Positions 1 to 57,071 of a DNA stretch of 64,000 bases are shown here, piece by piece. Positions within the stretch are counted from its first letter, which is position 1; every line of letters starts with the position of its first letter. Both the position numbers and the translations under genes were made by a program. The notes beneath the pieces were generated by a model that saw nothing but the letters and a program-made list of their open reading frames with translations, was not told the origin of the DNA and did not search any database. Source of the DNA: Patescibacteria group bacterium (lineage in GTDB: Bacteria > Patescibacteriota > Minisyncoccia > Moranbacterales > UBA2206); assembly GCA_022711335.1 (NCBI GenBank), contig JAKLFF010000001.1, forward strand, positions 40,260 to 104,259, written 5' to 3'.

Positions 1-755
1 AACCAGGCATTTGGTCGGCTTGCGTATCTTCGCAAATTGGCTGTCCGATGGGTTGCCAATTTTGCGCAACAGGCAAAGGCGGATTTGTGAGAAATTTAAC
101 TTCCGAAGAAATAATCGATCAGATTTTGTTTTGGAAGCAGCATCTCAAGAAAAATAAAATCAGCGGCATTTTTTCCAATATCGTTTTTATGGGAATGGGA
201 GAGCCATTTCTCAATTGGAAAGAGGTATCCAAAAGCATAAAAGATTTGACTGATCCGAAATTATTCGGTTTTGGATCAAGAAGCATATCTGTCTCAACGG
301 TTGGCATTCGGGAAGGAATTGAAAAAATAGCCAAGGAATTTCCCCAGGTGAATCTGGCCATTTCTTTGCATTTCGGAAATAACAAAAAAAGATCAGAATA
401 TATGCCAATTAACAAAGACTATGATTTAAATAACATTAAAAATTCCATTTCCTGTTATTTTCAAAAAACCAGGAGGAAGATTTTTTTGGAATATATCATG
501 CTTGCGGATATTAATGACAGTCAGAAAGACGCGGATGACTTGATTAAGTTTATAAGGTCCATAGATGATAATTATCTTTTGCATCTGAATCTTATTAAAT
601 ATAACGAAACTTCCGGAAAATTTGTTCCTTCAACCGGAACGAAAATGAATGAATTTAAAAATTATCTTGTTTCTAGAGAAATAAGCGTCACAATAAGAAA
701 AAGCCTTGGAGAAGATATCCAAGGCGCATGCGGGCAGCTGGCTGGCAAAAATTAA
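1..755 (+). CDS. rlmN: Radical-SAM rRNA/tRNA adenine-C2 methyltransferase RlmN, 5-prime truncated at window edge
   Basis: The frame stays open back to position 1. It reads PGIWSACVSSQIGCPMGCQFCATG, which is the RlmN CxxxCxxC cluster motif. The C-terminus ...DIQGACGQLAG matches the RlmN terminal motif. Confidence 0.8.
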   Translation, partial: PGIWSACVSSQIGCPMGCQFCATGKGGFVRNLTSEEIIDQILFWKQHLKKNKISGIFSNIVFMGMGEPFLNWKEVSKSIKDLTDPKLFGFGSRSISVSTVGIREGIEKIAKEFPQVNLAISLHFGNNKKRSEYMPINKDYDLNNIKNSISCYFQKTRRKIFLEYIMLADINDSQKDADDLIKFIRSIDDNYLLHLNLIKYNETSGKFVPSTGTKMNEFKNYLVSREISVTIRKSLGEDIQGACGQLAGKN

Positions 756-2422
756 ATATTTTTTACCATATAAGTATCTTCCAGTCTATATTCCAGCTTT
801 TTATAGTATCCCCGGACTCCAACACCTGAAATAACGGCGATTTTTTTTATTCCGAAATCTTGTTTGGCAATTCTTTCAGCTTCGGCAATAAGTTTCTTTC
901 CAAGTCCGATATGCTGGGGAGATTTATTGTCCTTTCTGCTTATCTCGGTCATTTTTCCATAAGTATGCACCTCGCGGATGATAGCGGAATTCCTTAATAT
1001 TGGCATATAATCATACAATTTGTCATTCCCGACTTGACCGGGAATCCAGTTTTTAATTTTTATTTGTTTGGCTAGATTCCCGCTTTCGCGAGAATGACAA
1101 ATAAAGGGAACTCTTAATCGCAACAATGCGAATAATTTTTTCTTGTCTTTTGACACGAATTGCAAAAATATTTCTTTTCCGCCTGATGCGTTATAATCAA
1201 TCCGATCGAGAATTATTTTTTCATTTATTTTATAATCCAGCTTTACTTCCCGGCATCGGATGCATTGGCAGTTTGATCTGGGAATAATCAGCTGGCGCAG
1301 ATTGGATAATTTCGGTCCAGCAATAATTGAAGTGGAGGGAACATCGCGGACCAGGCGGGAAATCCGGACGTAGGGCGGAATGATTTTGTTTTTTATTTCC
1401 AAAACCAGTTTTTCAAACTGCTTATCGCTCATCGGATTGTATTTTCCTTGTTTCCAAGCTTTGTATAAATCGCTGTTTTTCACAACAACAGTCGGATAAA
1501 TTTTGAGCATATCCGGACGAAAATCGGGATTGGAAAATAATTTTTGAAACATTTCCAAATCTCTCTTGGAATTTGATCCGGGAAGTCCGGGCATAATGTG
1601 ATAATTTATTTTGAATCCGGCGTCTTTAAGAAGTTTAGAGGCTTCTATAGTGGCTTCTACATTATGTCCGCGGCTATTAATTTTTAAAATATCATCAAAA
1701 ATATTTTGCACGCCCAGTTCAACTCTCGTGCAGCCCAAATTTCTAAAATTAATTATTTCTTTTTCCGAAATATAATCCGGCCGCGTTTCCAGTGTCAGCC
1801 CAATAATCCTATGCCTAGCCTTTTCATTTTTTCTTTGCTCGATTAGCAATAAATTTTTTGTTACATGTTTCGTGTTATATGTTTTATGTTTTGTGTATTC
1901 ATTGCAGGCGCGGAAACATTCAGTGATGAACCAGCGCTGATATTTTTTGGGAAGATAGGAAAAAGTTCCGCCCATGACGATCAATTCGATTTTGTCAGTT
2001 TTGTGCCCGTTAAGTTCGAGTGATCGAAGCCGGTTTTGCACTTGGGCGTATGGATTAAATTTTGAGAAAATGGCGCGCATAACGGCCGGTTCATTGGAAA
2101 GATAGCTTTTGGGCATTTTGGGTTCAGTCGGGCAATAAAGGCATTTTCCAGGGCAAGGAAATGGCTTTGTAAGGACGGCGACAACGGCTACCCCAGACTG
2201 AGTGCGGATGCTTCGGCTCATCATAACCTTTTCGAGATTGGCGCTTGGTTTGATTTCTTTTTTTTCTATCAGTTTGTTATAAATTTCCCGTAGATCTGCA
2301 TTAGTCGGCAGGGGAAGTCTCAACTTTTTGCAGAGGTCTTTTTTGATTTGCGAAAAATCTTCGGAATTTTTAACATTCCTTTTTATTGCTAATTTTATGA
2401 AGTTGTCATAAGCTGGATTCAT
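752..2422 (-). CDS. elp3: Elp3-like protein: N-terminal radical-SAM domain plus C-terminal GNAT acetyltransferase domain. Carries an in-frame repeat-element insertion.
   Basis: The radical-SAM motif is PFPCPGKCLYCP (CxxxxCxxC). The GNAT tail HIGLGKKLIAEAERIAKQDFGIKKIAVISGVGVRGYYKKLEY is typical of Elp3. The 556 aa ORF reads through repeat copy 1 at 1021..1099. Confidence 0.85.
   Translation of the reverse strand: MNPAYDNFIKLAIKRNVKNSEDFSQIKKDLCKKLRLPLPTNADLREIYNKLIEKKEIKPSANLEKVMMSRSIRTQSGVAVVAVLTKPFPCPGKCLYCPTEPKMPKSYLSNEPAVMRAIFSKFNPYAQVQNRLRSLELNGHKTDKIELIVMGGTFSYLPKKYQRWFITECFRACNEYTKHKTYNTKHVTKNLLLIEQRKNEKARHRIIGLTLETRPDYISEKEIINFRNLGCTRVELGVQNIFDDILKINSRGHNVEATIEASKLLKDAGFKINYHIMPGLPGSNSKRDLEMFQKLFSNPDFRPDMLKIYPTVVVKNSDLYKAWKQGKYNPMSDKQFEKLVLEIKNKIIPPYVRISRLVRDVPSTSIIAGPKLSNLRQLIIPRSNCQCIRCREVKLDYKINEKIILDRIDYNASGGKEIFLQFVSKDKKKLFALLRLRVPFICHSRESGNLAKQIKIKNWIPGQVGNDKLYDYMPILRNSAIIREVHTYGKMTEISRKDNKSPQHIGLGKKLIAEAERIAKQDFGIKKIAVISGVGVRGYYKKLEYRLEDTYMVKNI
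1021..1099. mobile_element. MITE-like double-hairpin element, copy 1, in-frame inside elp3
   Basis: The sequence is tgtcattcccgacttgaccgggaatccag, then a 28 bp AT spacer, then ctagattcccgctttcgcgagaatgaca. The ends are inverted repeats, and each arm contains its own mini-palindrome. Confidence 0.9.
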
Positions 2423-3187: not shown

Positions 3188-3270
3188 TGCCGAAGGAGAG
3201 AGTCGAACTCTCATGGGATTTCTCCCGCACGATTTTGAGTCGTGTGCGTCTGCCATTCCGCCACTTCGGC
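3188..3270 (-). tRNA. tRNA-Leu (anticodon CAA), type II with long variable arm
   Basis: The reverse complement is GCCGAAGTGGCGGAATGGCAGACGCACACGACTCAAAATCGTGCGGGAGAAATCCCATGAGAGTTCGACTCTCTCCTTCGGCA. It has a 7-bp acceptor stem and an anticodon stem CACGA/TCGTG with loop CTCAAAA. The T-loop is TTCGA and the long variable arm is CGGGAGAAATCCC. CCA is not encoded. Confidence 0.85.
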
Positions 3271-4234: not shown

Positions 4235-4261
4235 AAAAATAAAAAATCCGAAGCACGAAAT

Positions 4262-4384
4262 CAGAAATTCGAAACAAATTCAAAATATTAAATTTGAAAT
4301 GGCTAAAACTGTTTTGAATTTTAAACATTTGAATTTGTATATTGTTTCGAATTTCGATATTCGAATTTCGAGTTTGATTAATTT
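4262..4384. repeat. AT-rich heptameric GAATTTN/TTCGAAA repeat array in the parA-parB spacer
   Basis: attcgaaacaaattcaaaatattaaatttgaaat...gtttcgaatttcgatattcgaatttcgag. The same motif family recurs at 6977..7105 and 21968..22105. Confidence 0.6.
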
Positions 4385-6966: not shown

Positions 6967-6976
6967 GAGTTTATTA

Positions 6977-7105
6977 TGAATTTAGAATTTAGAATTTCGA
7001 ATTTTGAATTGGAATCTGGAATATTGAATTTCGAGGTAATCTCGGCTGTTTTTTATTTTAAATTCTTAATTCCCATTCTAAATTCCAACTTCACAATTCA
7101 AAATT
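6977..7105. repeat. Inverted arrays of heptameric GAATTTN repeats flanking a ~60 bp core, intergenic between topA 3-prime end and rel 5-prime end
   Basis: The left arm is gaatttagaatttagaatttcgaattttgaattggaat. The right arm is ttctaaattccaacttcacaattcaaaattc, the reverse orientation. Confidence 0.6.
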
Positions 7106-9373
7106 CTATTTTATGTAGCTACATTCCTTGTTCGAACACCTGGCTTTTCCTTTAGCGGCAAACGTCATAAGGCTTTTGCACTTCGGGCATTTTTCTCCGG
7201 TCGGCTTATTCCAGAGGGCGAAATCGCAGTTTGGATAAGCATTACATCCGTAAAAAATTCTTCCCTTTTTGCTTTTTCGCTCGACTATTTCGCCTTTTTC
7301 ACATTTTGGACAGGTAATCCCGGTTTTATTTTCTATCTTCTTTATATTCTTACAATTGGGATAATTGGAACATCCCAGAAAGGCTCCAAACCGGCCTCGT
7401 TTTACGGCCATTTTAGCTCCGCAAAGTTCGCAAATTTCTCCGGCATGCTGTTCGTCTAATTTTTTTTCAGAATCTGTTTTTTCAGTATAGCGGCAGTTGG
7501 GATAATTTGAACAAGCGATGAATTTTCCAAAGCGGCCGAATTTCAAAACCAGGTCTCCGCCGCATTCAGGACAATTGCGGTCAAGTTTTTCCTGAAAAGA
7601 TTCCTTTTTGACTTCTTTGGTTTTGTTTTTCAGATGCTTGATGAAGGGATCATAAAAACTTTGGATGACTGGAACCCATTTTATTTTTCCTTCAGCTATT
7701 TCATCAAAATCTTCTTCTACCGTAGCGGTAAAGTTGATGTCGACAATTTCCGGGAAATGTTCGACGAGAAGATCATTGACGACGAGGCCGATTTCAAGGG
7801 GATAAAGCCTTTTCTCTTCGTTTTTTTCGATATATTTTCGGTCGAGTATAGTTGAAATAGTCGGAGCGTATGTAGATGGGCGGCCAATCCCATTTTCTTC
7901 AAGAACTTTGACCAAAGTCGCCTCAGAGTATCGGGGCGGCGGAACAGTTGTTTTTTCTTCAACATTTATGTCGGCTGTTTCCAGTTCGTCTCCGGTTTTG
8001 AGCGGAGGAAGGATATTTTCCCCGTTGGCTTTCCGGAAGGAGTTGACTTTCAAAAACCCGTCAAACTTTATGGTAGATCCGCTGGCGGAAAGAAGATAAT
8101 TATTTTTCGATTTTTTATTCTGGGCTGAAATAGAAACTTTGACCGAATCAAAAACCGCGGGTGCCATTTGCGAAGCAATCATTCTTTCCCAAATAAGCCT
8201 GTATAGCTTGTACTGTTCGTGTTCCAGATCCTTTTTTAGCTCATCCGGATGCTTATCGGGATAAGCTGGACGGATAGCCTCGTGCGCTTCCTGGGCGTTT
8301 TTTGATTTATTTTTAAAAAATCTGGGGTTTTCAAGCGCATACTCTTTTCCAAATTCTTTTTCTATCGTTTTTTTGGCAGAGAGAATGGATTCGAGCGAAA
8401 GATTGACGCTGTCGGTTCTCATATAGGTTATGAATCCCTGCTCATAAAGCTTCTGGGCGGTCATCATGGTTTTTTTAGCGGAGTAACCCAGATTATTTAT
8501 GGCGCTTTGCTGCAGAGTGGAAGTGGTGAAAGGAGGGCTGGGATGACGGAGTGTTTCTTTTTCGGAGATATCGATAATTTCAATTTTGGATTTCTCCAGG
8601 TCAGTGGCGGATTCTTTAGCGCTTTTCTCGTCAGAGAAAATAGTTCTTTTAGTTTTATAGTCTCCGGCGAAAAGCTTGATAGTTTTCGCTACTTCCGTCT
8701 TTTTTCCGTTCTTTTCTATGATTTCCGCTTTAAATTTTTCAAGATCGGATGCGCCGTTTTTTTTGAGTTCAACAGAAACGTTCCAATATTTTTCACTTTT
8801 GAATTTTTCAATTTCCCGCTCCCGTTCGCAAATGAAACGGAGGGCAACAGATTGCACTCGTCCGGCACTGAGACCGCGGCGGATTTTTTTCCAGAGAAAC
8901 GGAGAAAGCTTATATCCGACTAGCCGATCAAGAATCCTTCTGGCCTGCTGGGCGTCAACCAGGTCAATGTCAATCTTGCGCGGATTTTCAAGCGCCTTAG
9001 TTATGGCATTTTTGGTAATTTCATGGAAAACTATCCGTTCAAAATTCTTTTTTTTGGAAAGCCCTAAAGCTTCAACGAGGTGCCAGGAGATAGCTTCTCC
9101 TTCGCGGTCTTCATCGGTTGCAAGAATCACTTTTTCGGCTGAAGATGCCTGTTTTTTAAGCTCTTTTACTCGGTTTATAGCTTTCGGAGGAATTTCATAT
9201 TTCGGCTCAAAGTTGTTTTCAACATCAATCGCCAATTCTTTTTCCGGCAAATCACGAATGTGTCCGTAGGAAGATTTTACGGAAAAACCTTTTCCAAGAA
9301 ATTTGGAAATAGTTTTGGCTTTAGTTGGAGACTCAACAATGACTAACTTCATGAAGCATGGAACATATAGCAT
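7106..9373 (-). CDS. topA: DNA topoisomerase I with C-terminal zinc-ribbon repeats
   Basis: The Toprim start is MKLVIVESPTKAKTISKFLG, so the true start is probably the second Met near 9352. The active-site region YITYMRTDS is present. There are multiple C-terminal CxxC...CxxC zinc fingers. Confidence 0.9.
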   Translation of the reverse strand: MLYVPCFMKLVIVESPTKAKTISKFLGKGFSVKSSYGHIRDLPEKELAIDVENNFEPKYEIPPKAINRVKELKKQASSAEKVILATDEDREGEAISWHLVEALGLSKKKNFERIVFHEITKNAITKALENPRKIDIDLVDAQQARRILDRLVGYKLSPFLWKKIRRGLSAGRVQSVALRFICEREREIEKFKSEKYWNVSVELKKNGASDLEKFKAEIIEKNGKKTEVAKTIKLFAGDYKTKRTIFSDEKSAKESATDLEKSKIEIIDISEKETLRHPSPPFTTSTLQQSAINNLGYSAKKTMMTAQKLYEQGFITYMRTDSVNLSLESILSAKKTIEKEFGKEYALENPRFFKNKSKNAQEAHEAIRPAYPDKHPDELKKDLEHEQYKLYRLIWERMIASQMAPAVFDSVKVSISAQNKKSKNNYLLSASGSTIKFDGFLKVNSFRKANGENILPPLKTGDELETADINVEEKTTVPPPRYSEATLVKVLEENGIGRPSTYAPTISTILDRKYIEKNEEKRLYPLEIGLVVNDLLVEHFPEIVDINFTATVEEDFDEIAEGKIKWVPVIQSFYDPFIKHLKNKTKEVKKESFQEKLDRNCPECGGDLVLKFGRFGKFIACSNYPNCRYTEKTDSEKKLDEQHAGEICELCGAKMAVKRGRFGAFLGCSNYPNCKNIKKIENKTGITCPKCEKGEIVERKSKKGRIFYGCNAYPNCDFALWNKPTGEKCPKCKSLMTFAAKGKARCSNKECSYIK

Positions 9374-9412
9374 GTAACAAAAATAAAAATGTTATATGTT
9401 TTATGTTATGTG

Positions 9413-10528
9413 TTATATGATTATATAGTTCTGTCCTCCTATATTTTTCACCCAACCCTTGATTTCCATAATTGAAAGCGTTGAAGATACATCCGCTGTT
9501 CCCAGTCTAGAGAGTTTCGAAATATTGTCAATATGGATTGGATCGGAAGACAGAATGTCAAGAAGGATTTTTTCATTTTCTGAATCGGGATTTTTTTGAA
9601 TATTCTTTTTTGGTTTTTCACAAAGAGACAGATCAAATTCTTCCAAAACATCTTTAATTCCCAAAACCAACTTGGCGCCTCTTTTAATGAGATTATTGGT
9701 TCCGATAGATTGCGGAGAAAAGATTGGTCCCGGGACGGAAAAAACTTCTCGGTTTGAGTCCAGCGCCATCTGCGCTGTGATAAGCGCGCCGGATGTTTCT
9801 CCAGCTTCGACAACCAGCGTCCCTCGAGACAGGCCGGCGACAATGCGGTTTCGCGCTGGAAAAGTAAGCGGGCCGGCTTTGATTCCAACGGGATATTCAG
9901 AAAGAAGCAAGCCATTTTCTATAATTTCTCGAGACAAATTGAAATTATTTCTCGGATAAAGGCTCAAGTCATCCAATCCGTTTCCAAGGACGGCAATGGT
10001 TTTTCCGCCGGCTTCAAGCGCTCCGCGGTGAGCAAAAGTGTCAATTCCTATGGCCATGCCGCTTACGACTGTAAAGCCGGAATTAGCCAGTTCGCGGGAA
10101 AAGCTTTTGGCAATCTGCGATCCATAAGAAGTATATTTCCTGGATCCTACCACTGAAATAAGCGGGGCGGAATTAATAGCGTCTGTTTTTCCCTTTATAT
10201 ACAACAGGTAGGGGGGATTTGAGATTTCTTTGAGCAGGCTCGGATATTCAGGAAAATCAAAAGTTATCATGCTAATTTTCTCCTTTTCCATTTTTTCCCA
10301 TTCTTCATCGGGATTTATATTATTTCTTTCAAAAACAATTCTTTTTGCTAGTTTTTCTCCGATTTTAGCGAACAGCAGTTCACTAAAATCCGCCTTCCAA
10401 ACGGCTTCCGGATCAGAAAAATATCCCAGCATCATTTTCATCTTTTGCGTCCCGACGCCGGGGATGATATTCAAGGCATTAAGATATTTCATTTTTAAAA
10501 GATAACACAAGGAACGTCCTCTTGACAA
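9413..10528 (-). CDS. dprA: DNA processing protein DprA (Smf)
   Basis: The Rossmann-like DprA core reads SVVGSRKYTSYGSQIAKSFSRELANSGFTVVSGMAIGIDTFAHRGAL...LVVEAGETSGALITAQMAL. The likely start is an internal Met (MKYLNAL, near 10492). Confidence 0.85.
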   Translation of the reverse strand: MSRGRSLCYLLKMKYLNALNIIPGVGTQKMKMMLGYFSDPEAVWKADFSELLFAKIGEKLAKRIVFERNNINPDEEWEKMEKEKISMITFDFPEYPSLLKEISNPPYLLYIKGKTDAINSAPLISVVGSRKYTSYGSQIAKSFSRELANSGFTVVSGMAIGIDTFAHRGALEAGGKTIAVLGNGLDDLSLYPRNNFNLSREIIENGLLLSEYPVGIKAGPLTFPARNRIVAGLSRGTLVVEAGETSGALITAQMALDSNREVFSVPGPIFSPQSIGTNNLIKRGAKLVLGIKDVLEEFDLSLCEKPKKNIQKNPDSENEKILLDILSSDPIHIDNISKLSRLGTADVSSTLSIMEIKGWVKNIGGQNYIII

Positions 10529-20700: not shown

Positions 20701-21969
20701 ATGGGAATTTTTTCAAAAATTTTAGGTTTCGGAAACATTTCACAGGATTTTTTGCTTTCTTTGGATATAGGGACGGAAGTGGTAAAAGCACTAGTTTTTA
20801 AAATCAATAAAGAAAGCGGATTAGGGATAGTAAAAGGAGTTGGAAGATCAAGGCAAGGGCTTAAAGATATGCATAGCGGAGCTGTTTCTGATATAAAGGG
20901 AGTTATTGATAATTCAAAAAAAGCGATTGAAATGGCCAAAAACATGGCCGGAGCCAGAAAGATAGAAAAAGCTGTCATTGGAATTGCCGGAGAGCTGGTA
21001 AAAGGAACAACTACTACTGTTCATTATGAAAGAATTCGCCCGGAAATTCGAATTGATCTTCCGGAACTCAAAAACATTATTCAAAAAGTCCAATGGAAAG
21101 CCTTTGACCGCATCAGGCAGCAGCTGGCCTGGGAAACGGGACACAGCGAAATTGAAGTGAAGCTGATAAACGCGGCGATTGTGGATGTTCGGATCGATGG
21201 ATACAAGGTGACCAACCCAATCGGTTTTCAGGGACGCGACGTATCTATCGCTGTTTTTAATGCATATGCCCCGATGATTCATTTAGGGGCGCTTCAGGCT
21301 ATTGCGGATGAATTGAAACTGGAGCTGCTAAATGTTGCGGCTGAACCTTACGCTGTGGCCAAATCTATGGGACTTGACGATATAACTGACTTTAATGCGA
21401 TTTTTATTGATATAGGAGGAGGAACGACCGACATCGCGGTAGTGAGAAACGGCGGACTGGAAGGAACAAAAATGTTTGCTTTAGGAGGCAGGGCTTTTAC
21501 AAAAAGACTAGCGCATGAACTGGGCGTGGGATTTGAAGAAGCGGAGGTTTTGAAAATAAGGTATTCTGAAGGAAAATTAGGGCGGGACGTCAGTATGAAA
21601 GTAGAAAGGATATTGGAAGACGATTGCAATGTTTGGCTTTCCGGCATTGAACTTTCTCTTTCTGAGTTTGCTTCAAGCGATCTTCTTCCTCATAGATTTT
21701 TCCTTTGCGGCGGAGGTTCTGGCCTTCCGGGAATAAAAAAGGCGCTTGTATCTTCTGGATGGACGGGAAATCTTCCCTTTGCCAGAATTCCGGAAGTTAG
21801 TTTTTTGCAGCCTAAAGACGTGGTTAATATAAAAGATGAAACAGGCGAGCTTCGCGATCCGCAAGATATAACGCCAATGGGATTGGCCAATCTGGCCTTA
21901 GATCTGGTTGGCGAAGAAAAAGTTATGGCCGGAATCTTAAGAAGAGCGGTAAAAATGATACAAAAATAG
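20701..21969 (+). CDS. Actin-fold ATPase of the FtsA/PilM family (FtsA-like)
   Basis: Phosphate-1 is LSLDIGTEVVKALVF. Phosphate-2/adenosine is IFIDIGGGTTDIAVV...FALGGRAF. The length of 422 aa fits FtsA, but no ftsZ lies downstream. Confidence 0.6.
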   Translation: MGIFSKILGFGNISQDFLLSLDIGTEVVKALVFKINKESGLGIVKGVGRSRQGLKDMHSGAVSDIKGVIDNSKKAIEMAKNMAGARKIEKAVIGIAGELVKGTTTTVHYERIRPEIRIDLPELKNIIQKVQWKAFDRIRQQLAWETGHSEIEVKLINAAIVDVRIDGYKVTNPIGFQGRDVSIAVFNAYAPMIHLGALQAIADELKLELLNVAAEPYAVAKSMGLDDITDFNAIFIDIGGGTTDIAVVRNGGLEGTKMFALGGRAFTKRLAHELGVGFEEAEVLKIRYSEGKLGRDVSMKVERILEDDCNVWLSGIELSLSEFASSDLLPHRFFLCGGGSGLPGIKKALVSSGWTGNLPFARIPEVSFLQPKDVVNIKDETGELRDPQDITPMGLANLALDLVGEEKVMAGILRRAVKMIQK

Positions 21970-22105
21970 AATTTTGAATTTGGAATTTTGAATTTGGAAT
22001 TAAAATGCAAAAAATAAAAAATACATAAATTATCATAGTGCCAATTTATTTTTTGGGCTTATATTTATTCTAAATTCTAAATACTAAATTCTAAATTTCA
22101 ATTTT
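21968..22105. repeat. Inverted arrays of heptameric GAATTT(N)/GGAATTT repeats in the intergenic region
   Basis: The left arm is gaattttgaatttggaattttgaatttggaatt. The right arm is ttctaaattctaaatactaaattctaaatttc. The architecture matches 6977..7105. Confidence 0.6.
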
Positions 22106-24115
22106 ATGCACCAGACATTCTATATCGATATAGATGAAGAAATCACTTCTATAGTCGAAAAATTGAGAAATTCAAAATCAGGAGAAGTTGTGCTCGTTGT
22201 TCCCAAGAGAGCGTTGCTTATCCAGAGCATCGTCAATCTTCGGCTTCTCAAAAAAGAAGCCGACTCGCTGAATGTTTCCTTGAGTATTGTTACTCAAGAC
22301 AATTTGGGGAAGGTTTTAGTTGAAAAAGCAGGCATATTTTACCAAGAAAGCCTGAAGGAAACAGAAAATGATGAGATAATAAGAAGTGAAAGCAGAATTG
22401 GCGAAAGCTATTTTGACAATCGCGACTATTCGAAAATAGGGGACAATCTTCATTCAGAGGAAGAAAAAATGGGAAAAATAGGTTCCGACAGTTATTTTGA
22501 CAGGAGCAGCAATCTTTCTTCTGAAATGGACAAGGATAAAAAAGCTGTTTTTAGAAACGTTTCTCCGGAACAGCCTTCCTCTTCCAGCCAGCCAAGTAGT
22601 GAGAAAATTTTAAATAAAGAATTGGTTTTGGGATTTGGAAATAATGCCAATTTAAAAAAAGGAGCTGTCAGCATAGACTCCTCGCTGTCTTCTTATCAAA
22701 TGCATCCAAGTCAAGCAGGTTTGCCGCAAGCGCCTGTGCAGGCGGCCAGAAATAATCCCCCGTCTGTTTCTAGGCCTTCCGAATTATTTCCTCGACCAAT
22801 AGAAGGCGTACGGGGAAATGCTTATGCTGGCCGGTCGGGAGACAGAAAAATAGATAATTTTTTCCAACATGGAAATTATTCTGTTCCGGCAGAAGAAAGC
22901 AAAAACGGTTTCAAGAACGCCAGCCTTTCTAAGAAAACATTTAAAGTTTTTTGGATTTTCGGGCTGATTCTTATTTTGCTTGTTTTGGCAGCGGCTGCTT
23001 ATTTCATAGTGCCCAAAGCAGATGTTGTCATTACTGCGAAGGGGACTCAAAAGGCTCAGGAAGCAGAAGTGAAAGCTGACGCTAAAATTGAAACAGTGAA
23101 TTATGAGGAAAAAGTTATTCCAGCAGAGGCAGTTTCAACTGTTGTAACGGCTTCGAAAAGCGTAATTCCCAGTGGAAACAAAGGGGCATCGAGTGGAAAA
23201 AAGGCCAGAGGGACGATCACTATATATAATGAGTTTAGTTCAGCCAGCCAGTCTCTTGTAGCGACGACGCGCTTTCAATCGGAAGATGGAAAAATATTCA
23301 GGCTGGAAAAGGGGGTTACTGTTCCTGGAACGTCAAAAGAAGGCGGGGAAACTAAAGCCGGAACAATCGAAGTGGAAGTAGCGGCAGATGAATCCGGAGA
23401 ATCCTATAATATCAGCCCTTCAAAATTTACTATTCCTGGATTTAAAGATAGCGGAAACGGAAAATACGAAAAGATTTACGCCAAATCAGAAAAAGCGATG
23501 TCTGGCGGAGGAAGCGAAAATAGCTCTTCGGAGGGAGGAAATAAAAAAATAACGGAAGCGGATATAGCCGGAGCAAAAAGCAAAATTTTATCGGATCTTC
23601 AAACCCAGGTAAGGAATAAAATCGAAGAATCGGCTGGAGAGGGAATGGTCGTTTTGGATGATGCCATCAATAGCGAGGAAGCGGTTTATACTCTTTCAAA
23701 TTCAGCTGGAGAAGCAGTCGAAAAATTCGAAATCAAAGCGCAAATGAAAGTAAACGCGCTGGTTTTCAAAAAATCTGACTTGGAAAATGTCGTAGGAAAA
23801 ATTGCCGCTAATTCAGGAAACGGAAAAACTAGCCTGGAAGGAAGTTCAATGGATATTTCTTATGGCAAGGCAGATGTTGATTTTAAGGCCGAAACTGTTC
23901 TAATTAAAGCAATCGGAACGATTAAAAACGGCTCAGACATTGATTTGGAAAATATCAAGAAGGAAATTTTAGGAAAAACAAATGAAGAATTGGAAACATA
24001 TTTGGGTGCTTATCCGAACATAGAAAAAGTGGATGTAACCTATTGGCCGCCGTTTCTAAATGGAAAAATTCCCCTTTATGAGAAACGGGTCAATGTGGCG
24101 GTAGAAGTCGAATAA
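22106..24115 (+). CDS. Hypothetical bitopic membrane protein (cytoplasmic N-domain, Ser/Pro-rich linker, single TM, large extracytoplasmic domain)
   Basis: 669 aa with the TM segment FWIFGLILILLVLAAAAYFIV near residue 290. I recognise no family motif. Confidence 0.55.
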   Translation: MHQTFYIDIDEEITSIVEKLRNSKSGEVVLVVPKRALLIQSIVNLRLLKKEADSLNVSLSIVTQDNLGKVLVEKAGIFYQESLKETENDEIIRSESRIGESYFDNRDYSKIGDNLHSEEEKMGKIGSDSYFDRSSNLSSEMDKDKKAVFRNVSPEQPSSSSQPSSEKILNKELVLGFGNNANLKKGAVSIDSSLSSYQMHPSQAGLPQAPVQAARNNPPSVSRPSELFPRPIEGVRGNAYAGRSGDRKIDNFFQHGNYSVPAEESKNGFKNASLSKKTFKVFWIFGLILILLVLAAAAYFIVPKADVVITAKGTQKAQEAEVKADAKIETVNYEEKVIPAEAVSTVVTASKSVIPSGNKGASSGKKARGTITIYNEFSSASQSLVATTRFQSEDGKIFRLEKGVTVPGTSKEGGETKAGTIEVEVAADESGESYNISPSKFTIPGFKDSGNGKYEKIYAKSEKAMSGGGSENSSSEGGNKKITEADIAGAKSKILSDLQTQVRNKIEESAGEGMVVLDDAINSEEAVYTLSNSAGEAVEKFEIKAQMKVNALVFKKSDLENVVGKIAANSGNGKTSLEGSSMDISYGKADVDFKAETVLIKAIGTIKNGSDIDLENIKKEILGKTNEELETYLGAYPNIEKVDVTYWPPFLNGKIPLYEKRVNVAVEVE

Positions 24116-34334: not shown

Positions 34335-34363
34335 ATTAGAAAGAAGTAGAGATCTACTTTTAC

Positions 34364-34409
34364 CCCCGCGCTAATTCCAACTAATATTAGTTGGAATTAG
34401 CGCGGGGGC
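34364..34409. repeat. 46-bp perfect palindrome (23-bp arms, no loop), preceded by a 16-bp perfect palindrome at 34344..34359
   Basis: The 46-bp palindrome is cccccgcgctaattccaactaat|attagttggaattagcgcggggg. The 16-bp one is aagtagagatctactt. Confidence 0.8.
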
Positions 34410-35285: not shown

Positions 35286-36164
35286 TTAAATTGAAAAAAT
35301 AGCAATTCTCCATCTGGAAGCCAGATCTCTTTGAAAACTCGGTTTGCACTTCGGGAAGGACGTTTTTATCAGTTTGGATATTTTTGTTTTTTGTTCGGGA
35401 CTTATCTCCATATAACATGAAACATGGAACATGGAACAATTTTCTTTCAAGGTTTTTATTTGCTGTAATAATTTTTTATAGTGATCAAGTCCGTCGATTC
35501 CGGAAAGTAAAGCGGACTGCGGTTCATAATTTTTAACATCCGGTGCTGTTGAATTATAAATTTTTTCAGAAAGATAGGGAAGATTGGCGACAATAATTAA
35601 ATGGTTAAATTGTTTAATGGCTGGATTGTTTAAAAAGTGGCTTAACAGATTTGATCTGATAAATTTTATTCCGCCAGCTGGCGGATTATCCAGTTTATAT
35701 TTTTTGGCGTTTATTTTTGCGATTTTTAGAGCTTTTTCTGAAATGTCAATTCCGTAAAAGGACATCAAATGTCCATAATGGACATTTGATGTCCGAAGAT
35801 TTTTTGCAATAGAAATAATAATATTTCCAGAACCCGTACCAACGTCAATAATTGCAATTTTGTTATTTTTACTAGTTGCTAGTTGCAAATTACCGGTCAC
35901 TAATTCAACCAGATGCTCTGTTTCCGGCCGTGGAATGAGCGTGTGGCGGTTTACTTTGAAATCCAGGCCGTAGAACCCCTTCTGGCCTAAAATATACGCC
36001 AGAGGCTCGTTTTTTCGCCTTCTGGCGGTCATGGCTTGAAGTTTTTTTTCTTCAAGCTTGGTTAATTTCAATTCGGGGCGCGTCGAAACATATTCTCTTG
36101 ACTTTTTGAGAATATGTGCTAGAATCAATTCTTGTTCGTAGGGGGAAATAATGTTTTTTTTCAT
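35286..36164 (-). CDS. prmC: Release-factor glutamine N5-methyltransferase PrmC (HemK)
   Basis: NEPLAYILGQKGFYGLDFKVNRHTLIPRPETE is present. The SAM motif is IIDVGTGSGNI. NPPY-like IVANLPYL is present. It is adjacent to prfA on the same strand. Confidence 0.8.
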   Translation of the reverse strand: MKKNIISPYEQELILAHILKKSREYVSTRPELKLTKLEEKKLQAMTARRRKNEPLAYILGQKGFYGLDFKVNRHTLIPRPETEHLVELVTGNLQLATSKNNKIAIIDVGTGSGNIIISIAKNLRTSNVHYGHLMSFYGIDISEKALKIAKINAKKYKLDNPPAGGIKFIRSNLLSHFLNNPAIKQFNHLIIVANLPYLSEKIYNSTAPDVKNYEPQSALLSGIDGLDHYKKLLQQIKTLKENCSMFHVSCYMEISPEQKTKISKLIKTSFPKCKPSFQRDLASRWRIAIFSI

Positions 36165-38667: not shown

Positions 38668-39714
38668 ATGCGAAAAATACTTATTGTAGGCGCAAAAGGG
38701 ATGTTGGGGCAAGAATTGGTCAAAACGTTTAGGAAAGACAGTGATTACAAAGTAATTGCCTGGGACAAAGAAGATATAGATATCACGCGGGAAAAAGAGG
38801 TAGACAAAAAAATCGGCATAATTAAGCCGAGTATTATTATCAATGCGGCGGCATATAATGCGGTGGATAAGTGCGAGGAAAATAAAAAAGAATTTGGATT
38901 GGCCAAAGAAATAAACGGTCTGGCGCCAGGATATTTGGCGAAAGCGGCAAAGAAAATAAAAGCGGTTTTAATCCACTATTCAACCGATTACGTTTTTGAT
39001 GGTGATTTAGAGAAGTTATTGTTTTCCGAGCCATCTGGCCCGCTTCGACTCGATGAGACATCTCGTCGAATCGAGGCGAGCTGCTCTCATGTTTGCGCGA
39101 CTTGTTTGCTTCATGAAAACGGGGAAATAGGTTATGGCGAAGATCATGAACCCAATCCAATCAGCAATTACGGAAAAAGCAAGCTGATGGGCGAGCAGGA
39201 AATTCAGAAAAATTATAAAAATCATTATATTATCCGCCTTTCCAAATTGTTTGGCAAGCCAGCCCAAGCTGAAGGAGCCAAAAAAAGTTTTTTTGATGTG
39301 ATGTTGGAGTTAGGCAAAAATCCGCCAGCTGGCGGAAAAGAAATTCACCCTGTTGAATACGCCGCAAAGCGGCGTCCGCCAGAGGCGGAATTCAATAGGG
39401 TAAAAGCTGTTGACGAAGAAACCAGCTGTTTCACTTATGCTCCAGATTTGGCCAAGAAGACCAAGGAAATAATTAATAGCAAAAAGCCGTTTGGCATTTA
39501 TCATGTAACTAACAGTAGATCTTGCACCTGGTACGAAGCTTGCGTGGAGCTCTATAAACTGGCTAAGATTAAAACAAAAGTGATTCCAGTTCCAGCATCT
39601 GAATTTCCACGTCCGGCCAAAAGGCCGATGTATTCGGTTTTATTAAATACAAAATTAAATCCACTCCGGGATTGGAAAGAAGCTTTAAGGGAGTATTTAA
39701 AAAATAATAAATAA
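38668..39714 (+). CDS. rmlD: dTDP-4-dehydrorhamnose reductase (RmlD/RfbD) with two GC-rich palindromic in-frame insertions
   Basis: MRKILIVGAKGMLGQ is the Rossmann N-terminus. HYSTDYVFDG and YGKSKLMGE are catalytic-region motifs. The start was moved to 38668. The protein is ~50 aa longer than canonical. Confidence 0.8.
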   Translation: MRKILIVGAKGMLGQELVKTFRKDSDYKVIAWDKEDIDITREKEVDKKIGIIKPSIIINAAAYNAVDKCEENKKEFGLAKEINGLAPGYLAKAAKKIKAVLIHYSTDYVFDGDLEKLLFSEPSGPLRLDETSRRIEASCSHVCATCLLHENGEIGYGEDHEPNPISNYGKSKLMGEQEIQKNYKNHYIIRLSKLFGKPAQAEGAKKSFFDVMLELGKNPPAGGKEIHPVEYAAKRRPPEAEFNRVKAVDEETSCFTYAPDLAKKTKEIINSKKPFGIYHVTNSRSCTWYEACVELYKLAKIKTKVIPVPASEFPRPAKRPMYSVLLNTKLNPLRDWKEALREYLKNNK

Positions 39715-41782: not shown

Positions 41783-42655
41783 ATGACTAAAATTAAAAAA
41801 GCTATTCTTCCAGTTGCGGGTTTTGGAACCCGGTTCTTGCCGGCGACTAAAGCCCAGCCGAAAGAAATGCTTCCGGTCGTTGACAAGCCAGCTATTCAAT
41901 ATTTGGTCGAAGAAGCAGCGGCAGCTGGAATTGAAGAAATTGTTTTTGTAACCGGTCGCGGAAAAAGAGCTATTGAAGATCATTTTGACTATTCATACGA
42001 GCTTGATCATACGCTAGTTGAAAAAAATAAGCACGATTTGGTCAAAAAAGTGAGGGAAGTTGAAGATTTGGCAAAATTTTCATATGTTCGACAACCCGTT
42101 CCTCTGGGAGACGGCCATGCTGTTCTTTGCGCTCGGCATATTGTTGGAGATGAGCCTGTGCTTGTGATGTTCGGCGATAGTTTATATGACAGCGAAGTTC
42201 CCGCTGCAAAACAACTTATTGATGTATATGAAAAATATAATGATGTCGTGGTTGGTTTGTCCGAAGTAAAACCAGACGAGGTTGAAAGATTTGGCGTTAT
42301 AGACGGAATTGATATCGGAAATGGAATCTATGAGATTAAAAAATTTGTCGAGAAGCCCAAAAAAGAAGAAGCGCCAAGCAATTTAGTGGCGGTTGGAAAA
42401 TATATAATAACTCCCGAAATTTTTGAGCTGTTGTCGACAATGAAAGGCGGAAAATCGGGAGAAATAAGGCTGGCTGACGCTTTTGATCTGATGTTGCAGA
42501 AAAACAGGCCGATTTACGGAAAAAAACTGGATGGCGAATGGCTGGATACGGGCGAAAAGCTTACTTTTATCACAACAACCATAAAGCTTGGTATAAAGCA
42601 TCCTGAAATAGGAGAAAAACTAAAAAGATTTATTAAAGAACTTGATATAAAATGA
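41783..42655 (+). CDS. galU: UTP--glucose-1-phosphate uridylyltransferase
   Basis: KAILPVAGFGTRFLPATKAQPKEMLPVVDKPAIQYLVEEA. Confidence 0.85.
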   Translation: MTKIKKAILPVAGFGTRFLPATKAQPKEMLPVVDKPAIQYLVEEAAAAGIEEIVFVTGRGKRAIEDHFDYSYELDHTLVEKNKHDLVKKVREVEDLAKFSYVRQPVPLGDGHAVLCARHIVGDEPVLVMFGDSLYDSEVPAAKQLIDVYEKYNDVVVGLSEVKPDEVERFGVIDGIDIGNGIYEIKKFVEKPKKEEAPSNLVAVGKYIITPEIFELLSTMKGGKSGEIRLADAFDLMLQKNRPIYGKKLDGEWLDTGEKLTFITTTIKLGIKHPEIGEKLKRFIKELDIK

Positions 42656-43923
42656 AAATTGCCATTCAAGCGGCGGATTTGGACAGCCAGCGGATTGATG
42701 GAACGCGGGTTTATATTTTGAATGTTCTAAAATACTTTGGAAAGCTCGATGAATCCAGTGATTTTTTGGTTTATCATAAAAAGAATTTCAATTCGGAACT
42801 CGAGCCGCCGGAATTTCCAAACTACAAAATAATTCAAAAAAATTCAGCTTGTATCTGGACGCAGACCAGATTTGCCTGGGAAATTTGGAAAGACAAGCCG
42901 GATGTCCTCTGGATGCCGATGCAGGCGCTTCCAATTATACGAAGGAAAAATCTTAAAACCGTGATAACTGTCCACGATCTGGCTTTCAAAATTTTTCCGA
43001 ATCAATTTACAAGAAATGATTTAAGGCGACTAAATTTTTATGCCGATTACGCTATAAAAAATTCTTCAAAAATAATCGCTGTTTCGGAGTCGACAAAAAA
43101 AGATATTTTAAAGTTTTATCCTGAAATAAAAGAAGATAAAATCAAAGTTATTTATCATGGGTTCGATGAAGGAGTTTTTGGTAAAAGATATGATAATAGT
43201 GAGATACTGGATATTTTGGAGAAATATAATATTATCAATAAAGTTCAAAGTTCAAAGTTCAAAGTTCAAAGCTACAGTTCAAAACTAAAAGTTACTTTTA
43301 AATACCTGCTATATGTCGGAGCTTTACAGCCAAGGAAAAATTTGATTTTATTGGTTAAGGCATTCGAAAGACTAAAAGAAAAATATTGTCATTCCGGCCA
43401 ACGAGCCGGAATCCAGTCTGGAAACAAAGATAATGCACTAGATTCCCGCTTTCGCGGGAATGACAAAAACGCCGGTGATTTTAGCAATTTGAAATTAGTT
43501 TTGGTTGGGAAACCAGCCTGGATGGCGGAAGAAATTTTAGAAAGAATAAAAAAATCAGAATTTGCAAACGATATAATTTTAGCCGGCCAAGTTGGCTTTG
43601 GTGATCTTGGTAAAATTTATCAAGGCGCCAGCGCTTTTGTGTTTCCCTCGCTTTATGAAGGCTTCGGGATTCCGATTTTGGAAGCTTTTGCGTCGGGAGT
43701 GTCGGTGATTTGCGCCAACAATTCTTCTCTTCCGGAAGTAGCCGGAGAAGCGGCGCTTTATTTCAAAAATAATAATCCTCAAGATTTAGCCATACAAATT
43801 GAAAAAATATTATTAAGCGAAGAATTTAAAAAAGACCTTGTTTCAAAAGGCCTCTTGCAGCTTCGAAAATTTTCTTGGGAAAAATGCGCCCGGGAAACTT
43901 TAAGTTATCTCAAATCAGGCTAA
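42652..43923 (+). CDS. Family-4 (GT-B) glycosyltransferase carrying a 7-bp tandem repeat and an in-frame MITE-like insertion in the interdomain region
   Basis: The C-terminal GT4 core is LLYVGALQPRKNL...FVFPSLYEGFGIPILEAFASGVSVICAN. Confidence 0.75.
   Translation: MKIAIQAADLDSQRIDGTRVYILNVLKYFGKLDESSDFLVYHKKNFNSELEPPEFPNYKIIQKNSACIWTQTRFAWEIWKDKPDVLWMPMQALPIIRRKNLKTVITVHDLAFKIFPNQFTRNDLRRLNFYADYAIKNSSKIIAVSESTKKDILKFYPEIKEDKIKVIYHGFDEGVFGKRYDNSEILDILEKYNIINKVQSSKFKVQSYSSKLKVTFKYLLYVGALQPRKNLILLVKAFERLKEKYCHSGQRAGIQSGNKDNALDSRFRGNDKNAGDFSNLKLVLVGKPAWMAEEILERIKKSEFANDIILAGQVGFGDLGKIYQGASAFVFPSLYEGFGIPILEAFASGVSVICANNSSLPEVAGEAALYFKNNNPQDLAIQIEKILLSEEFKKDLVSKGLLQLRKFSWEKCARETLSYLKSG
43241..43271 (+). 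repeat. Heptanucleotide tandem repeat (AAGTTCA)x4.4 inside the GT4 coding sequence
   Basis: aagttca aagttca aagttca aagttca aag. It translates as KVQSSKFKVQS. Confidence 0.85.
43387..43465. mobile_element. MITE-like double-hairpin element, copy 3, in-frame inside the GT4 gene
   Basis: tgtcattccggccaacgagccggaatccag, a spacer, then ctagattcccgctttcgcgggaatgaca. The encoded peptide is CHSGQRAGIQSGNKDNALDSRFRGNDK. Confidence 0.9.
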
Positions 43924-55472: not shown

Positions 55473-57071
55473 ATGAATTTTTCTAATAATATGCCCGCCA
55501 AAGGCGAGTCCGCCTTTGGCGGAAAAATCTCTATATCATATCCGCCGTTAGAATCAAAAAAAGGCATTGCTTGCCTGGCGCAAAACCGCCAGTTCCAGTG
55601 GTTCAGCCATCCGACTTACATCTATCCGGTTATTCCGGCTTATGCAGCCTCGTTTCTCAAGGCCAATGGATATGATGTTTTGTGGGATGATGCGATCGCG
55701 GAAGAATTGAATTATGAACAGTGGAAAGAAAGAATAGTCCGGGAAAAACCGGATATTATTGCGATTGAAACAAAGACACCGGTAGTGAAAATGCATTGGA
55801 AAATTATTGATGAAATAAAAAGAGAATTGCCTGATTCCAAGGTGGTATTGATGGGAGATCATGTGACGGCGCTGCCCAAAGAATCTTTGGAAAATTCCAA
55901 AGTTGATTATGTGATCGCCAGCGGGGATTATGATTTTGCGCTTTTAAATCTAGCCAATCATCTGTCAAAAGGCGAAGCGCTGGAGGGGGGCTTTTGGTAT
56001 CGGAAAAATTGTCATTCTCGCGAAAGCGGGAATCTAGAGGCAGGCAGTAAAGACTGGATCTCCGCTTTCGCGGGGATGACAGAAAAAGAATATAAAGAAT
56101 CAGAAATAACCACCACTGGGCCGGCAGATATTTCAAAAAATAATTTAGATACTCTGCCGCTTATCGACAGAAAGCTCACGAAGTGGAAAATGTATGGATA
56201 TAAAAATGGAAATTTCAAATATACGCCTGGCGCTTACATGATGAGCGGGCGCGATTGCTGGTGGGGAAAATGCACTTTCTGTTCCTGGACAACTATGTTT
56301 CCGGGAGAGAAATTTCGAACGATGTCGGCTGAAAAAGCGCTCAGCGAAGTGGAAAATCTGATTAAACTGGGTGTTAGAGAAATTATGGAAGATAGCGGTT
56401 CGCTTCCGGTTGGGCAGTGGCTCAAAGATTTTTGCCGTGGAATGATAGAACGGGGATATAACAAAAAAATAACGATGAGCTGCAATATGAGGATTACCGG
56501 CATAAAAGATCTTGAAACATGGGAGCTTATGAAAAAAGCCGGCTTCCGGTTTATTCTTTTCGGACTGGAATCAGCCAATCAGGAAACGCTTGACCGAGTT
56601 TGCAAAAATCTCGAGGTTTCAGAAATTGAACCAGGTCTCAAACTGTGTAAAGAAGGCGGGCTCGAACCTCATATCACTGCTATGATCGGCTACCCGTGGG
56701 AAACAAAGGAAATGGCTCAAAAAACGATAAGCTTGGCGAAAAAATTGTTCAAATGCGGATATGTAGACACGCTTCAGGGAACAATCGTGATTCCTTATCC
56801 GGGAACGCCTTTATATAAATACTGCGCTGAAAACAATTTGCTTCTAACCAAAAATTACGAAGATTATGATCAGCGCCAGATGGTTATGAAATCGCCACTG
56901 GCTTCCGAAGATGCCAAAGGACTGGTGCAGGGACTGTATAAGTCTTTTATGAGCCCCCAGTTTATCTGGCGAAAAATAAAATCCATAAGAAATATGGATG
57001 ATATAAAATTCTTTTTTATGGCTGGCTGGAAATGGATGGGGAAGATGATGGATTTTGGAAACAAAAAATAG
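55473..57071 (+). CDS. B12-binding-domain radical-SAM protein with in-frame MITE-like insertion
   Basis: It has an N-terminal B12-binding-like domain. The radical-SAM cluster motif is RDCWWGKCTFCSW. The ORF reads through repeat copy 4. Confidence 0.8.
   Translation: MNFSNNMPAKGESAFGGKISISYPPLESKKGIACLAQNRQFQWFSHPTYIYPVIPAYAASFLKANGYDVLWDDAIAEELNYEQWKERIVREKPDIIAIETKTPVVKMHWKIIDEIKRELPDSKVVLMGDHVTALPKESLENSKVDYVIASGDYDFALLNLANHLSKGEALEGGFWYRKNCHSRESGNLEAGSKDWISAFAGMTEKEYKESEITTTGPADISKNNLDTLPLIDRKLTKWKMYGYKNGNFKYTPGAYMMSGRDCWWGKCTFCSWTTMFPGEKFRTMSAEKALSEVENLIKLGVREIMEDSGSLPVGQWLKDFCRGMIERGYNKKITMSCNMRITGIKDLETWELMKKAGFRFILFGLESANQETLDRVCKNLEVSEIEPGLKLCKEGGLEPHITAMIGYPWETKEMAQKTISLAKKLFKCGYVDTLQGTIVIPYPGTPLYKYCAENNLLLTKNYEDYDQRQMVMKSPLASEDAKGLVQGLYKSFMSPQFIWRKIKSIRNMDDIKFFFMAGWKWMGKMMDFGNKK
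56010..56081. mobile_element. MITE-like double-hairpin element, copy 4, in-frame inside the radical-SAM gene
   Basis: tgtcattctcgcgaaagcgggaatctag, a spacer, then ctggatctccgctttcgcggggatgaca. The encoded peptide is CHSRESGNLEAGSKDWISAFAGMT. Confidence 0.9.

Follow-up and report, generated by a model that had tools for sequence, protein, structure and literature searches.

An inverted doublet of NTS/SRM-type hairpins lies in frame in the elp3 gene of a Patescibacteria group bacterium

We analysed a 64,000-nucleotide (nt) stretch of contig JAKLFF010000001.1 (positions 40,260 to 104,259 of the forward strand), hereafter the window, from a Patescibacteria group bacterium, a member of the Candidate Phyla Radiation (CPR). 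Our subject is a short palindromic element that lies in frame within the gene for Elp3, the enzyme of tRNA U34 cm5 modification, and that by its sequence consists of two hairpins of the NTS/SRM type (NTS, Neisseria Transformation Sequence; SRM, Ssn-related motif). The host open reading frame (ORF) and the parts of the element, with lengths in nt or amino acids (aa), are as follows.

752-2422, minus strand: elp3 ORF, 556 aa, intact and insert-bearing; radical-SAM plus KAT/GNAT tRNA U34 cm5-modification enzyme
1021-1099, no strand assigned: copy 1 of the element, 79 nt; two SRM/NTS-type hairpins in inverted orientation, 22 nt apart, translated as C442-K468
1072-1099, minus strand: hairpin 1 (TGTCATTCTCGCGAAAGCGGGAATCTAG), read first and translated as CHSRESGNL
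1050-1071, no strand assigned: variable spacer between the copy-1 hairpins, encoding AKQIKIKN
1021-1049, plus strand: hairpin 2, TGTCATTCCCGACTTGACCGGGAATCCAG, whose reverse complement reads WIPGQVGND; fits the SRM pattern

The ORF matched NCBIfam TIGR01211 with 554 bits (cutoff 350, E=3e-166) as well as Pfam Radical_SAM and Radical_SAM_C, and phmmer gave E~1e-122 for the M. infernus and 1e-115 for the D. mccartyi Elp3. The protein has both the radical-SAM and the KAT domain, together with the cluster cysteines, the catalytic Glu/His pair and the QHxGxG acetyl-CoA motif that define an Elp3; C90/C94/C97, E484, H486 and Q503-H504-x-G506-x-G508, which are among the residues invariant across 119 orthologues, are all present. 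An AlphaFold model made from 119 sequences had a mean pLDDT of 87 and a TM-score of ~0.9 to solved Elp3 structures (5L7J, 6IA8, 8PTX). A first, sequence-only reading of this DNA had proposed that a repeat lies in frame in elp3 without breaking the ORF. This was borne out, the palindrome at 1021-1099 falling within an intact minus-strand 556-aa ORF whose translation contains LRVPFICHSRESGNLAKQIKIKNWIPGQVGNDKLYDYMP, the peptide quoted in that reading.

The exact 556-aa protein occurs on at least 23 contigs of ENA, JGI and NCBI assemblies from several samples, and four copies of the gene differ from that in the window by 0-1 nt; we therefore regard it as a genuine and undegraded gene, not an assembly error. 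An assembly chimera at the repeat, or the pseudogene that the sequence-only reading had allowed for, was worth considering in that repeats are common misassembly sites, but we rate it extremely improbable: independently assembled data sets, which differ in sample and assembler, contain the identical gene, the ORF is intact with all family-invariant residues in place, and analogous inserts occur in orthologues from other genomes.

In sequence order, copy 1 consists of TGTCATTCCCGACTTGACCGGGAATCCAG, the 22-nt spacer and CTAGATTCCCGCTTTCGCGAGAATGACA, with pairing that reaches 1018-1102, and it covers codon C442 through the first base of K468. Either strand forms one long hairpin (RNA fold -36.2 kcal/mol, z = -7.6; DNA fold -19.4 kcal/mol, z = -6.1), and no shuffled sequence folded equally well. 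Each half-element, 28-29 nt long, is itself a hairpin; folded as single-stranded DNA (ssDNA) it closes a 4-nt loop with an 8-bp stem, ATTCCCGC/GCGGGAAT, and leaves a 5' TTGTC tail unpaired (dG -5.6 to -9.0 kcal/mol, z -2.1 to -6.5). Only one of the six reading frames through copy 1 is open, namely the frame in use. All three coding copies of the window (1, 3 and 4; see below) are open in the used frame and are read as TGT CAT TC.., and the peptides they encode are hydrophilic, with grand averages of hydropathy of -1.0, -1.5 and -0.45. Dozens of inserts in Elp3 orthologues likewise keep an open frame.

A transcript hairpin of -36 kcal/mol is very stable and in principle a processing site, so that the insert might be removed before the mature protein, in the manner of an intron or intein, leaving the enzyme unchanged. 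We consider this very improbable. Copy 1 matched no family in Rfam, the 27 aa contain no intein motifs, and the element is stop-free in the used frame only, a property that would be needless if it were excised; moreover, a Rickettsia gmk carrying a palindromic element is translated including the insert (Abergel 2006, as related in PMC2229807). The sole Rfam match within the window is one tRNA gene (3188-3270, minus strand).

The additional residues lie in a loop. Between two conserved blocks of the fold the window Elp3 has 38 residues against 13 in D. mccartyi Elp3, 35 against 7 in M. infernus Elp3, 42 against 15 in human ELP3 and 38 against 13 in yeast Elp3; the excess over every solved Elp3, 25-28 residues, equals the size of the element. 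In the AlphaFold model, pLDDT fell below 50 only at residues 70-73 and 444-464, the latter forming a low-confidence loop between the confident strands 430-439 and 479-487, with the fold retained. Alignment with the Dehalococcoides enzyme and structure prediction were among the checks put forward in the sequence-only reading, which had estimated ~26 extra residues; the element spans C442-K468. Its placement of the insert between the radical-SAM and GNAT domains, on the other hand, has to be corrected, as the first KAT strands (403-439) precede the insert and strand 479-487 follows it. The insert is predicted from the model to comprise ~27 disordered residues in the loop of one KAT-domain beta-hairpin.

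The insert ends 16 residues ahead of catalytic E484, in the hairpin loop leading to the catalytic strand (E484/H486). From standard GNAT topology, rather than from computed distances, we take this end of the sheet to be opposite the acetyl-CoA pyrophosphate site. The insert was considered as a candidate for the acetyl-CoA blocking loop, which in the D. mccartyi enzyme comprises residues 390-406, directly after catalytic E386/H388 (PMC6367351). E386/H388 align to E484/H486 of the window Elp3, and the blocking loop therefore corresponds to residues 488-504, downstream of the insert; the candidate was rejected.

Four copies of the element, of 79, 78, 79 and 72 nt, lie in the window, where the chance expectation is 0, and three of the four are in frame within genes, namely those for Elp3, for a glycosyltransferase and for a B12 radical-SAM enzyme. 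Besides copy 1, these are:

2435-2512, no strand assigned: copy 2, an intergenic stretch of 78 nt that separates the divergently oriented starts of elp3 (2422) and of a methyltransferase gene (2529)
43387-43465, plus strand: copy 3, 79 nt, inside a GT4-type glycosyltransferase ORF (42652-43923) and in frame with it, CHSGQRAGIQSGNKDNALDSRFRGND
56010-56081, plus strand: copy 4, 72 nt, inside a B12-binding radical-SAM ORF (55473-57071) and in frame with it, CHSRESGNLEAGSKDWISAFAGMT

The spacer has a different sequence in each of the four copies, and hairpin 1 of copy 1 is identical at 29 of 29 positions to the copy-4 hairpin at 56009-56037. Copy 2 occupies most of the 106-nt gap separating the elp3 and methyltransferase starts; in L005-L007, the orthologous loci, the two start codons adjoin with 0-1 nt between them. 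At copy 3 the glycosyltransferase is translated as KYCHSGQRAGIQSGNKDNALDSRFRGNDKNAG, and the copy is missing from the 77%-identical homologue P0126 and from nearly all of the 44 homologues displayed. The B12 radical-SAM enzyme reads KNCHSRESGNLEAGSKDWISAFAGMTEKEY at copy 4, which is likewise missing from homologues including P0246, P0248 and P0249 (80-82% identity); P0247, P0250, P0262 and P0276 carry related elements or half-elements at this site. No target-site duplication was evident at the four copies, whose flanks are merely A/T-rich, and no further copies were present in added flanks of 9 kb and 10 kb from the same organism.

Copies 1 and 2 bracket the first 1.3 kb of elp3 in a layout resembling 'NTS-gene-NTS'. 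The glycosyltransferase ORF holds a second insert, KVQSSKFKVQSYSSKLKV, at window positions 43243-43280, which is encoded by GTTCAAAG repeats and which most homologues are without. A similar peptide, KFKVQNSKFKATVKNSK, occurs in the 980-aa leucyl-tRNA synthetase of the same organism (L132), an enzyme of 808-831 aa in two relatives, and units similar to the GTTCAAAG repeats are also found in the Elp3 loop of the orthologues P0007 and P0058.

Judged by its sequence, the element is a doublet of a known hairpin class, NTS/SRM, and not a lineage-specific repeat. The NTS contains the classical dRS3 repeat ATTCCC-N8-GGGAAT, and NTS/SRM motifs are what Ssn proteins bind and cleave in ssDNA; these proteins are single-domain GIY-YIG nucleases whose genes are mostly flanked by the motif in an arrangement like that of an insertion sequence (IS) (PMC11893778). 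The SRM hairpin layout comprises a 5' (T)GTCAT tail, the ATTCCCGC/GCGGGAAT stem and AATCYAG. Against the Neisseria NTS consensus, CGTCATTCCCGCGMAVGCGGGAATCYRG, the hairpin of copies 2 and 3, TGTCATTCCCGCGAAAGCGGGAATCYAG, matched at 27 of 28 positions and hairpin 1 of copy 1 at 26 of 28, the latter also fitting the published SRM pattern. Six of the eight window hairpins matched the degenerate SRM motif HGTCWYN(0-2)YYVSBRHN(0-5)WNVSBRGN(0-2)RNCYNB (PMC11893778), with 0.08 matches expected from a first-order Markov model of the window.

The class is widespread. When one genome per species was scanned, the exact 25-mer TGTCATTCYCGCGAAAGCGGGAATC turned up in no fewer than 119 stretches, from at least 119 species (loci L011-L129) of many phyla. 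Hosts included Bacteroidota, Alpha-, Beta-, Gamma- and Deltaproteobacteria, Planctomycetota, Chloroflexota, Acidobacteriota, Omnitrophota and Ignavibacteria, and, within the CPR, Moranbacteria, Falkowbacteria, Magasanikbacteria, Saccharibacteria and Gracilibacteria. The motif is rare within genes, where 2% of the NTS of N. meningitidis are found (PMC11893778), and among the 25-mer matches listed, 16 of 147 lay inside long ORFs (14 of 130 outside the CPR). We rejected intragenic location as a general CPR property of the 25-mer because only 2 of the 17 CPR matches listed were of this kind. In-frame SRM doublets were nevertheless seen in a FemAB-like protein of a Moranbacteria metagenome-assembled genome (MAG; L074 3320-4588), in a different frame (...VILAKAGIQ...KAGMT), and in an O-antigen-ligase-like membrane protein of a Magasanikbacteria MAG (L080 4765-6105, ILICHSRESGNLTEKTDPRFHGDDIL). 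SRM-rich genomes include those of Rickettsia and Wolbachia (PMC11893778), and locus L039 (5735-5853), from the Rickettsia endosymbiont of Polydrusus tereticollis, contains an intergenic inverted doublet with a 63-nt AT-rich spacer whose hairpins are identical to those of window copies 2 and 3. This raises the question whether some families of Rickettsia palindromic elements (RPEs) are SRM doublets.

We compared Elp3 with 120 homologues of 64-78% identity obtained by BLASTP. The closest relatives (P0002, P0005-P0009; 80-84% identity over aligned columns) are insert-free and read RLRIS-NNS-AIIREVHTYG. At the protein level, 32 of the 120 orthologues have an SRM-type insert at the same loop, of the type C-H-[SPA]...[ND]-D-K, in several subfamilies (CHSRESGN...GNDK, CHPEFISGS...KQVQHDK, CHPERS...CARNDK and CHSGLDPES...RFHGNDK), and ~20 further orthologues have loop peptides typical of other hairpin repeats (VETHCNASLQ, PLEKGGLRRDL, GSTxxxVEP). 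Six insert-bearing orthologues were read as DNA, and all six carried TGTCAT...ATGACA palindromes of 58 to 103 nt, whose stems differ in sequence with pairing preserved in each. The sequence-only reading had named an orthologous peptide without a palindrome as evidence contrary to it; none was seen, every orthologue insert examined at the DNA level being a palindrome and the palindrome-free orthologues having short loops. The case is stronger and broader than first proposed, involving three genes in the window and dozens of Elp3 orthologues.

On a neighbour-joining tree built with both variable Elp3 loops masked, insert presence or absence required at least 22 changes, against a mean of 28.5 and a minimum of 24 for shuffled labels; insert presence is therefore barely structured by phylogeny. 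Empty-site DNA from L130 and L131, checked for a terminal remnant, ATGACAAA, that would mark excision, gave GATGATAAA and AAAGAAAAATTATAT, which is suggestive at most.

These comparisons bear on whether the extra 27 residues are an adaptive peptide, that is, a lineage-specific functional KAT loop serving, for example, tRNA contact or regulation, for which the palindrome would be incidental or merely the origin. Such a role would accord with the fixation of the insert in all sampled contigs, with the insert of the same type and length in P0010/P0011 and with the position of the loop 16 residues ahead of E484. However, the region has a pLDDT below 50, the insert is absent at 80-84% identity, and the same element occurs in two unrelated enzymes. 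Furthermore, the peptide is set by the hairpins and is wholly different between subfamilies although pairing is kept, and among the differences between the window and L005 is one compensatory stem change, from C:G to T:A. An adaptive peptide therefore seems to us improbable.

Elp3 has a second site of this kind:

1855-1896, minus strand: second variable Elp3 loop, ~aa 176-189, KHKTYNTKHV..., with a pLDDT of 57 for residues 181-190

In the window this loop is encoded by a CATG/ACAT-rich unit, and at 9350-9413 an intergenic hairpin has an arm like it. Many other, repeat-like peptides are found here in orthologues (KVHKVSKVHKV, RRDAxxRVST, PLLxKERVGV, KPxTQNLxPST), and full SRM doublets occupy the site in L008 (10556-10631) and L010 (3910-3982). 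In both L008 and L010 the two Elp3 inserts within the one genome share a subfamily, and the orthologous sites of other genomes carry other subfamilies. At a third site, between KAT strands at query aa ~425-428, some orthologues have repeat-like inserts (PPLLGKGRAGVR, PARGRGTRPG, SFPPLDKGRARVGSS).

Taken together, the element is most probably a selfish, non-autonomous hairpin doublet that behaves like an RPE, tolerated in a permissive coding loop of an enzyme that keeps working. The likeness to RPEs had been suggested from the sequence and stands as regards behaviour (the repeat is multi-copy and in frame, the ORF is intact and close orthologues are empty), but not as regards the repeat itself, which is not lineage-specific. 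In the mechanism we propose, the doublet would insert into, or be maintained in, the DNA for the KAT beta-hairpin loop of Elp3, and selection would act as a filter through which only frame-preserving, stop-free insertions in loops tolerating disordered residues survive. The ribosome would read through the insert, and Elp3 would retain its fold and catalytic residues; the whole number of codons, the stop-free used frame and the hydrophilic, predicted disordered peptide argue for such read-through with the fold kept. If only insertions in permissive loops survive, this would account for the collection of elements by this loop and one other of Elp3 in many lineages. We infer that the insert is translated and nearly neutral. 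By analogy with the NTS-ssnA-NTS units of other bacteria, it may need an Ssn-type ssDNA nuclease, working on its hairpins, in order to spread.

Several observations weigh against a selfish element that is simply tolerated. The 3' junction (GAC AAA YTN YAT) and the reading frame were constant in all six orthologue inserts examined, and the insert of P0010 (72% identity) agrees with copy 1 in type, length and orientation; these features fit one old insertion as well as recurrent ones. Between the window and L005 the hairpins are identical at 25 of 28 and, for hairpin 2, 28 of 29 positions (89-97%), whereas four-fold sites are saturated at 40% and the spacer is no better conserved (10 of 22). The hairpins must therefore be constrained or renewed, and the spacer and the peptide are not. 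Something constrains the hairpins, be it the demands of mobility, gene conversion or a function where they lie, so that they are not simply drifting junk. In addition, no candidate mobilising enzyme was found in the window and its flanks. A hidden Markov model (HMM) search of the window with 19 kb of flanks (L132 and L133), ~83 kb in all, gave no gene for Ssn (cd10448-like), defined as a single-domain GIY-YIG protein of ~95 aa, cd10448, typically SRM-flanked, and no match to Y1 transposase, IS200 TnpA or RAYT was obtained in the same ~83 kb, the latter being a weak seed-based test.

The Ssn HMM was built from four Ssn-like ORFs, of which those in L029 and L057 are small GIY-YIG ORFs bracketed by the motif and those in L030 and L123 lie in motif-holding loci; the discovery of these four ORFs in non-CPR loci validated the search profile. 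Approximate seeds had yielded one Ssn candidate, an antisense match that was rejected as spurious, the HMM giving nothing in the ~83 kb.

With respect to the history of the insert, the insert-free sisters are also without the ancestral ...YxxxPxLKN segment, which suggests that a deletion took both and favours an old insertion. The spacer shares 10 of 22 positions with that of the same-type insert of P0010, the level of neutral saturation. Recent activity is indicated by a distinctive T variant common to hairpin 1 of copy 1 and copy 4, and by P0003, which carries a different subfamily at the same place with nearly the same flanking host residues. The data are compatible both with recurrent insertion and with an old insertion refreshed by gene conversion; under either history these genomes harbour an element family that is active now or was so recently.

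The constraint on the hairpins also bears on an alternative in which they are kept in or near elp3 as DNA signals, namely Ssn cleavage or binding sites on ssDNA that would limit recombination of incoming DNA across the locus as a host-level function, like the 'NTS-gene-NTS' effect of Neisseria. This overlaps the selfish-element reading. In a compact CPR genome with almost no intergenic space such signals might be accommodated only in permissive coding loops. Ssn cleaves NTS as ssDNA and reduces transformation by NTS-flanked DNA (PMC11893778); copies 1 and 2 bracket the 5' 1.3 kb of elp3, the hairpins are conserved far above synonymous sites, and the exact 25-mer is conserved across phyla, all of which count in its favour. 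Yet the closest relatives do well insert-free, insert presence barely follows phylogeny, NTS in N. meningitidis are in genes in 2% of cases, and the ~83 kb contain no ssn gene that we could find. On balance we think this alternative rather unlikely and prefer a selfish doublet tolerated in a permissive loop.

Other repeats were noted in the window. AT-rich GAATTT/AAATTC inverted arrays lie beside several genes (4244-4368, 6973-7112 and 21963-22107), a perfect palindrome of 23+23 nt, CCCCCGCGCTAATTCCAACTAAT and its complement, occupies 34363-34408, and a GC-rich palindrome, ATTCCGCCAGCTGGCGGA, is present in two copies (35661-35687 and 39319-39345). The palindromes at the last three locations are possibly terminators or another repeat family.

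Comparison with known systems places the element between several families. Like REPIN/BIME elements, which are mobilised by the Y1 transposase RAYT, it has two short imperfect inverted hairpins with a variable linker that form one long fold, and it is non-autonomous and dispersed; the SRM-flanked ssn genes were themselves likened by their authors to the IS200/IS605 and RAYT-REP systems (PMC11893778). Unlike REPIN/BIME elements, its tag is TGTC(A/T) where theirs is GTAG or CGTC, the weak seed-based test already mentioned revealed no RAYT-like gene here, and the window copies are mostly intragenic whereas REPIN/BIME elements are extragenic by definition. Intragenic miniature inverted-repeat transposable elements such as ERIC, the 107-bp Correia element and QMITE1 are also small repeats with open frames that are fused in frame to host ORFs, but the four window copies have no evident TA target duplication and no IS-derived terminal inverted repeat, and their hairpin is of the Ssn type.

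The likeness to NTS/SRM (Nat Commun 2025, PMC11893778) extends to the match at 27 of 28 NTS positions, the GTCAT tail, the ATTCCC...GGGAAT stem and AATCYRG, as well as to multiple copies and a broad phylogenetic spread, here at least 119 species. The window hairpins differ in forming inverted doublets with a spacer and in lying, for three of the four copies, in frame within genes, where N. meningitidis has 2% of its NTS. In addition, ~83 kb yielded no ssn gene, and the CPR, to which the host belongs, go unmentioned in the main text of PMC11893778. In the literature collection searched, nothing described palindromic or SRM elements that lie in frame in CPR proteins, or an Elp3 loop collecting them.

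RPEs (Ogata et al. 2000, 2002) and the Wolbachia palindromes (Ogata 2005) are alike in being multi-copy and in frame in conserved enzyme genes, with the ORF kept, orthologues empty and the insert apparently tolerated, a likeness that lies in behaviour and not in a comparison of sequences; the doublet with window-identical hairpins in a Rickettsia endosymbiont (L039) is a further point of contact. RPEs are longer, at 105-146 bp against 72-79 bp here, and have been described as Rickettsia-specific, whereas the window hairpin spans phyla. In-frame selfish palindromes, so far viewed as a peculiarity of Rickettsia and Wolbachia, would now be found in a CPR bacterium, and the hairpin of the element is of the type recently shown to be a target of the single-strand nuclease Ssn, which joins two literatures. 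We know of no explanation of how in-frame selfish palindromes spread, the RPE phenomenon having gone unexplained since 2000. It is possible, if doubtful, that SRM/NTS doublets are a general, cross-phylum class that includes protein-coding palindromes such as those of Rickettsia and Wolbachia and that, in CPR bacteria, time and again colonises a few permissive loops of core enzymes, two Elp3 loops serving as sinks, its hairpins kept by Ssn-linked selection at the DNA level. If this is true, the RPE phenomenon gains a candidate enzyme and a testable mechanism, and repeat insertion becomes a routine source of loop-length variation in CPR proteins. For annotation, many length differences and 'low-complexity' loops of CPR proteins may be repeat insertions, and motifs such as CHSRESGN, RFRGNDK and AFAGMT would then be footprints of DNA hairpins and not protein features. 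Among the Elp3 orthologues, enzymes with and without an insert form a natural series on which the cost of insertion could be gauged.

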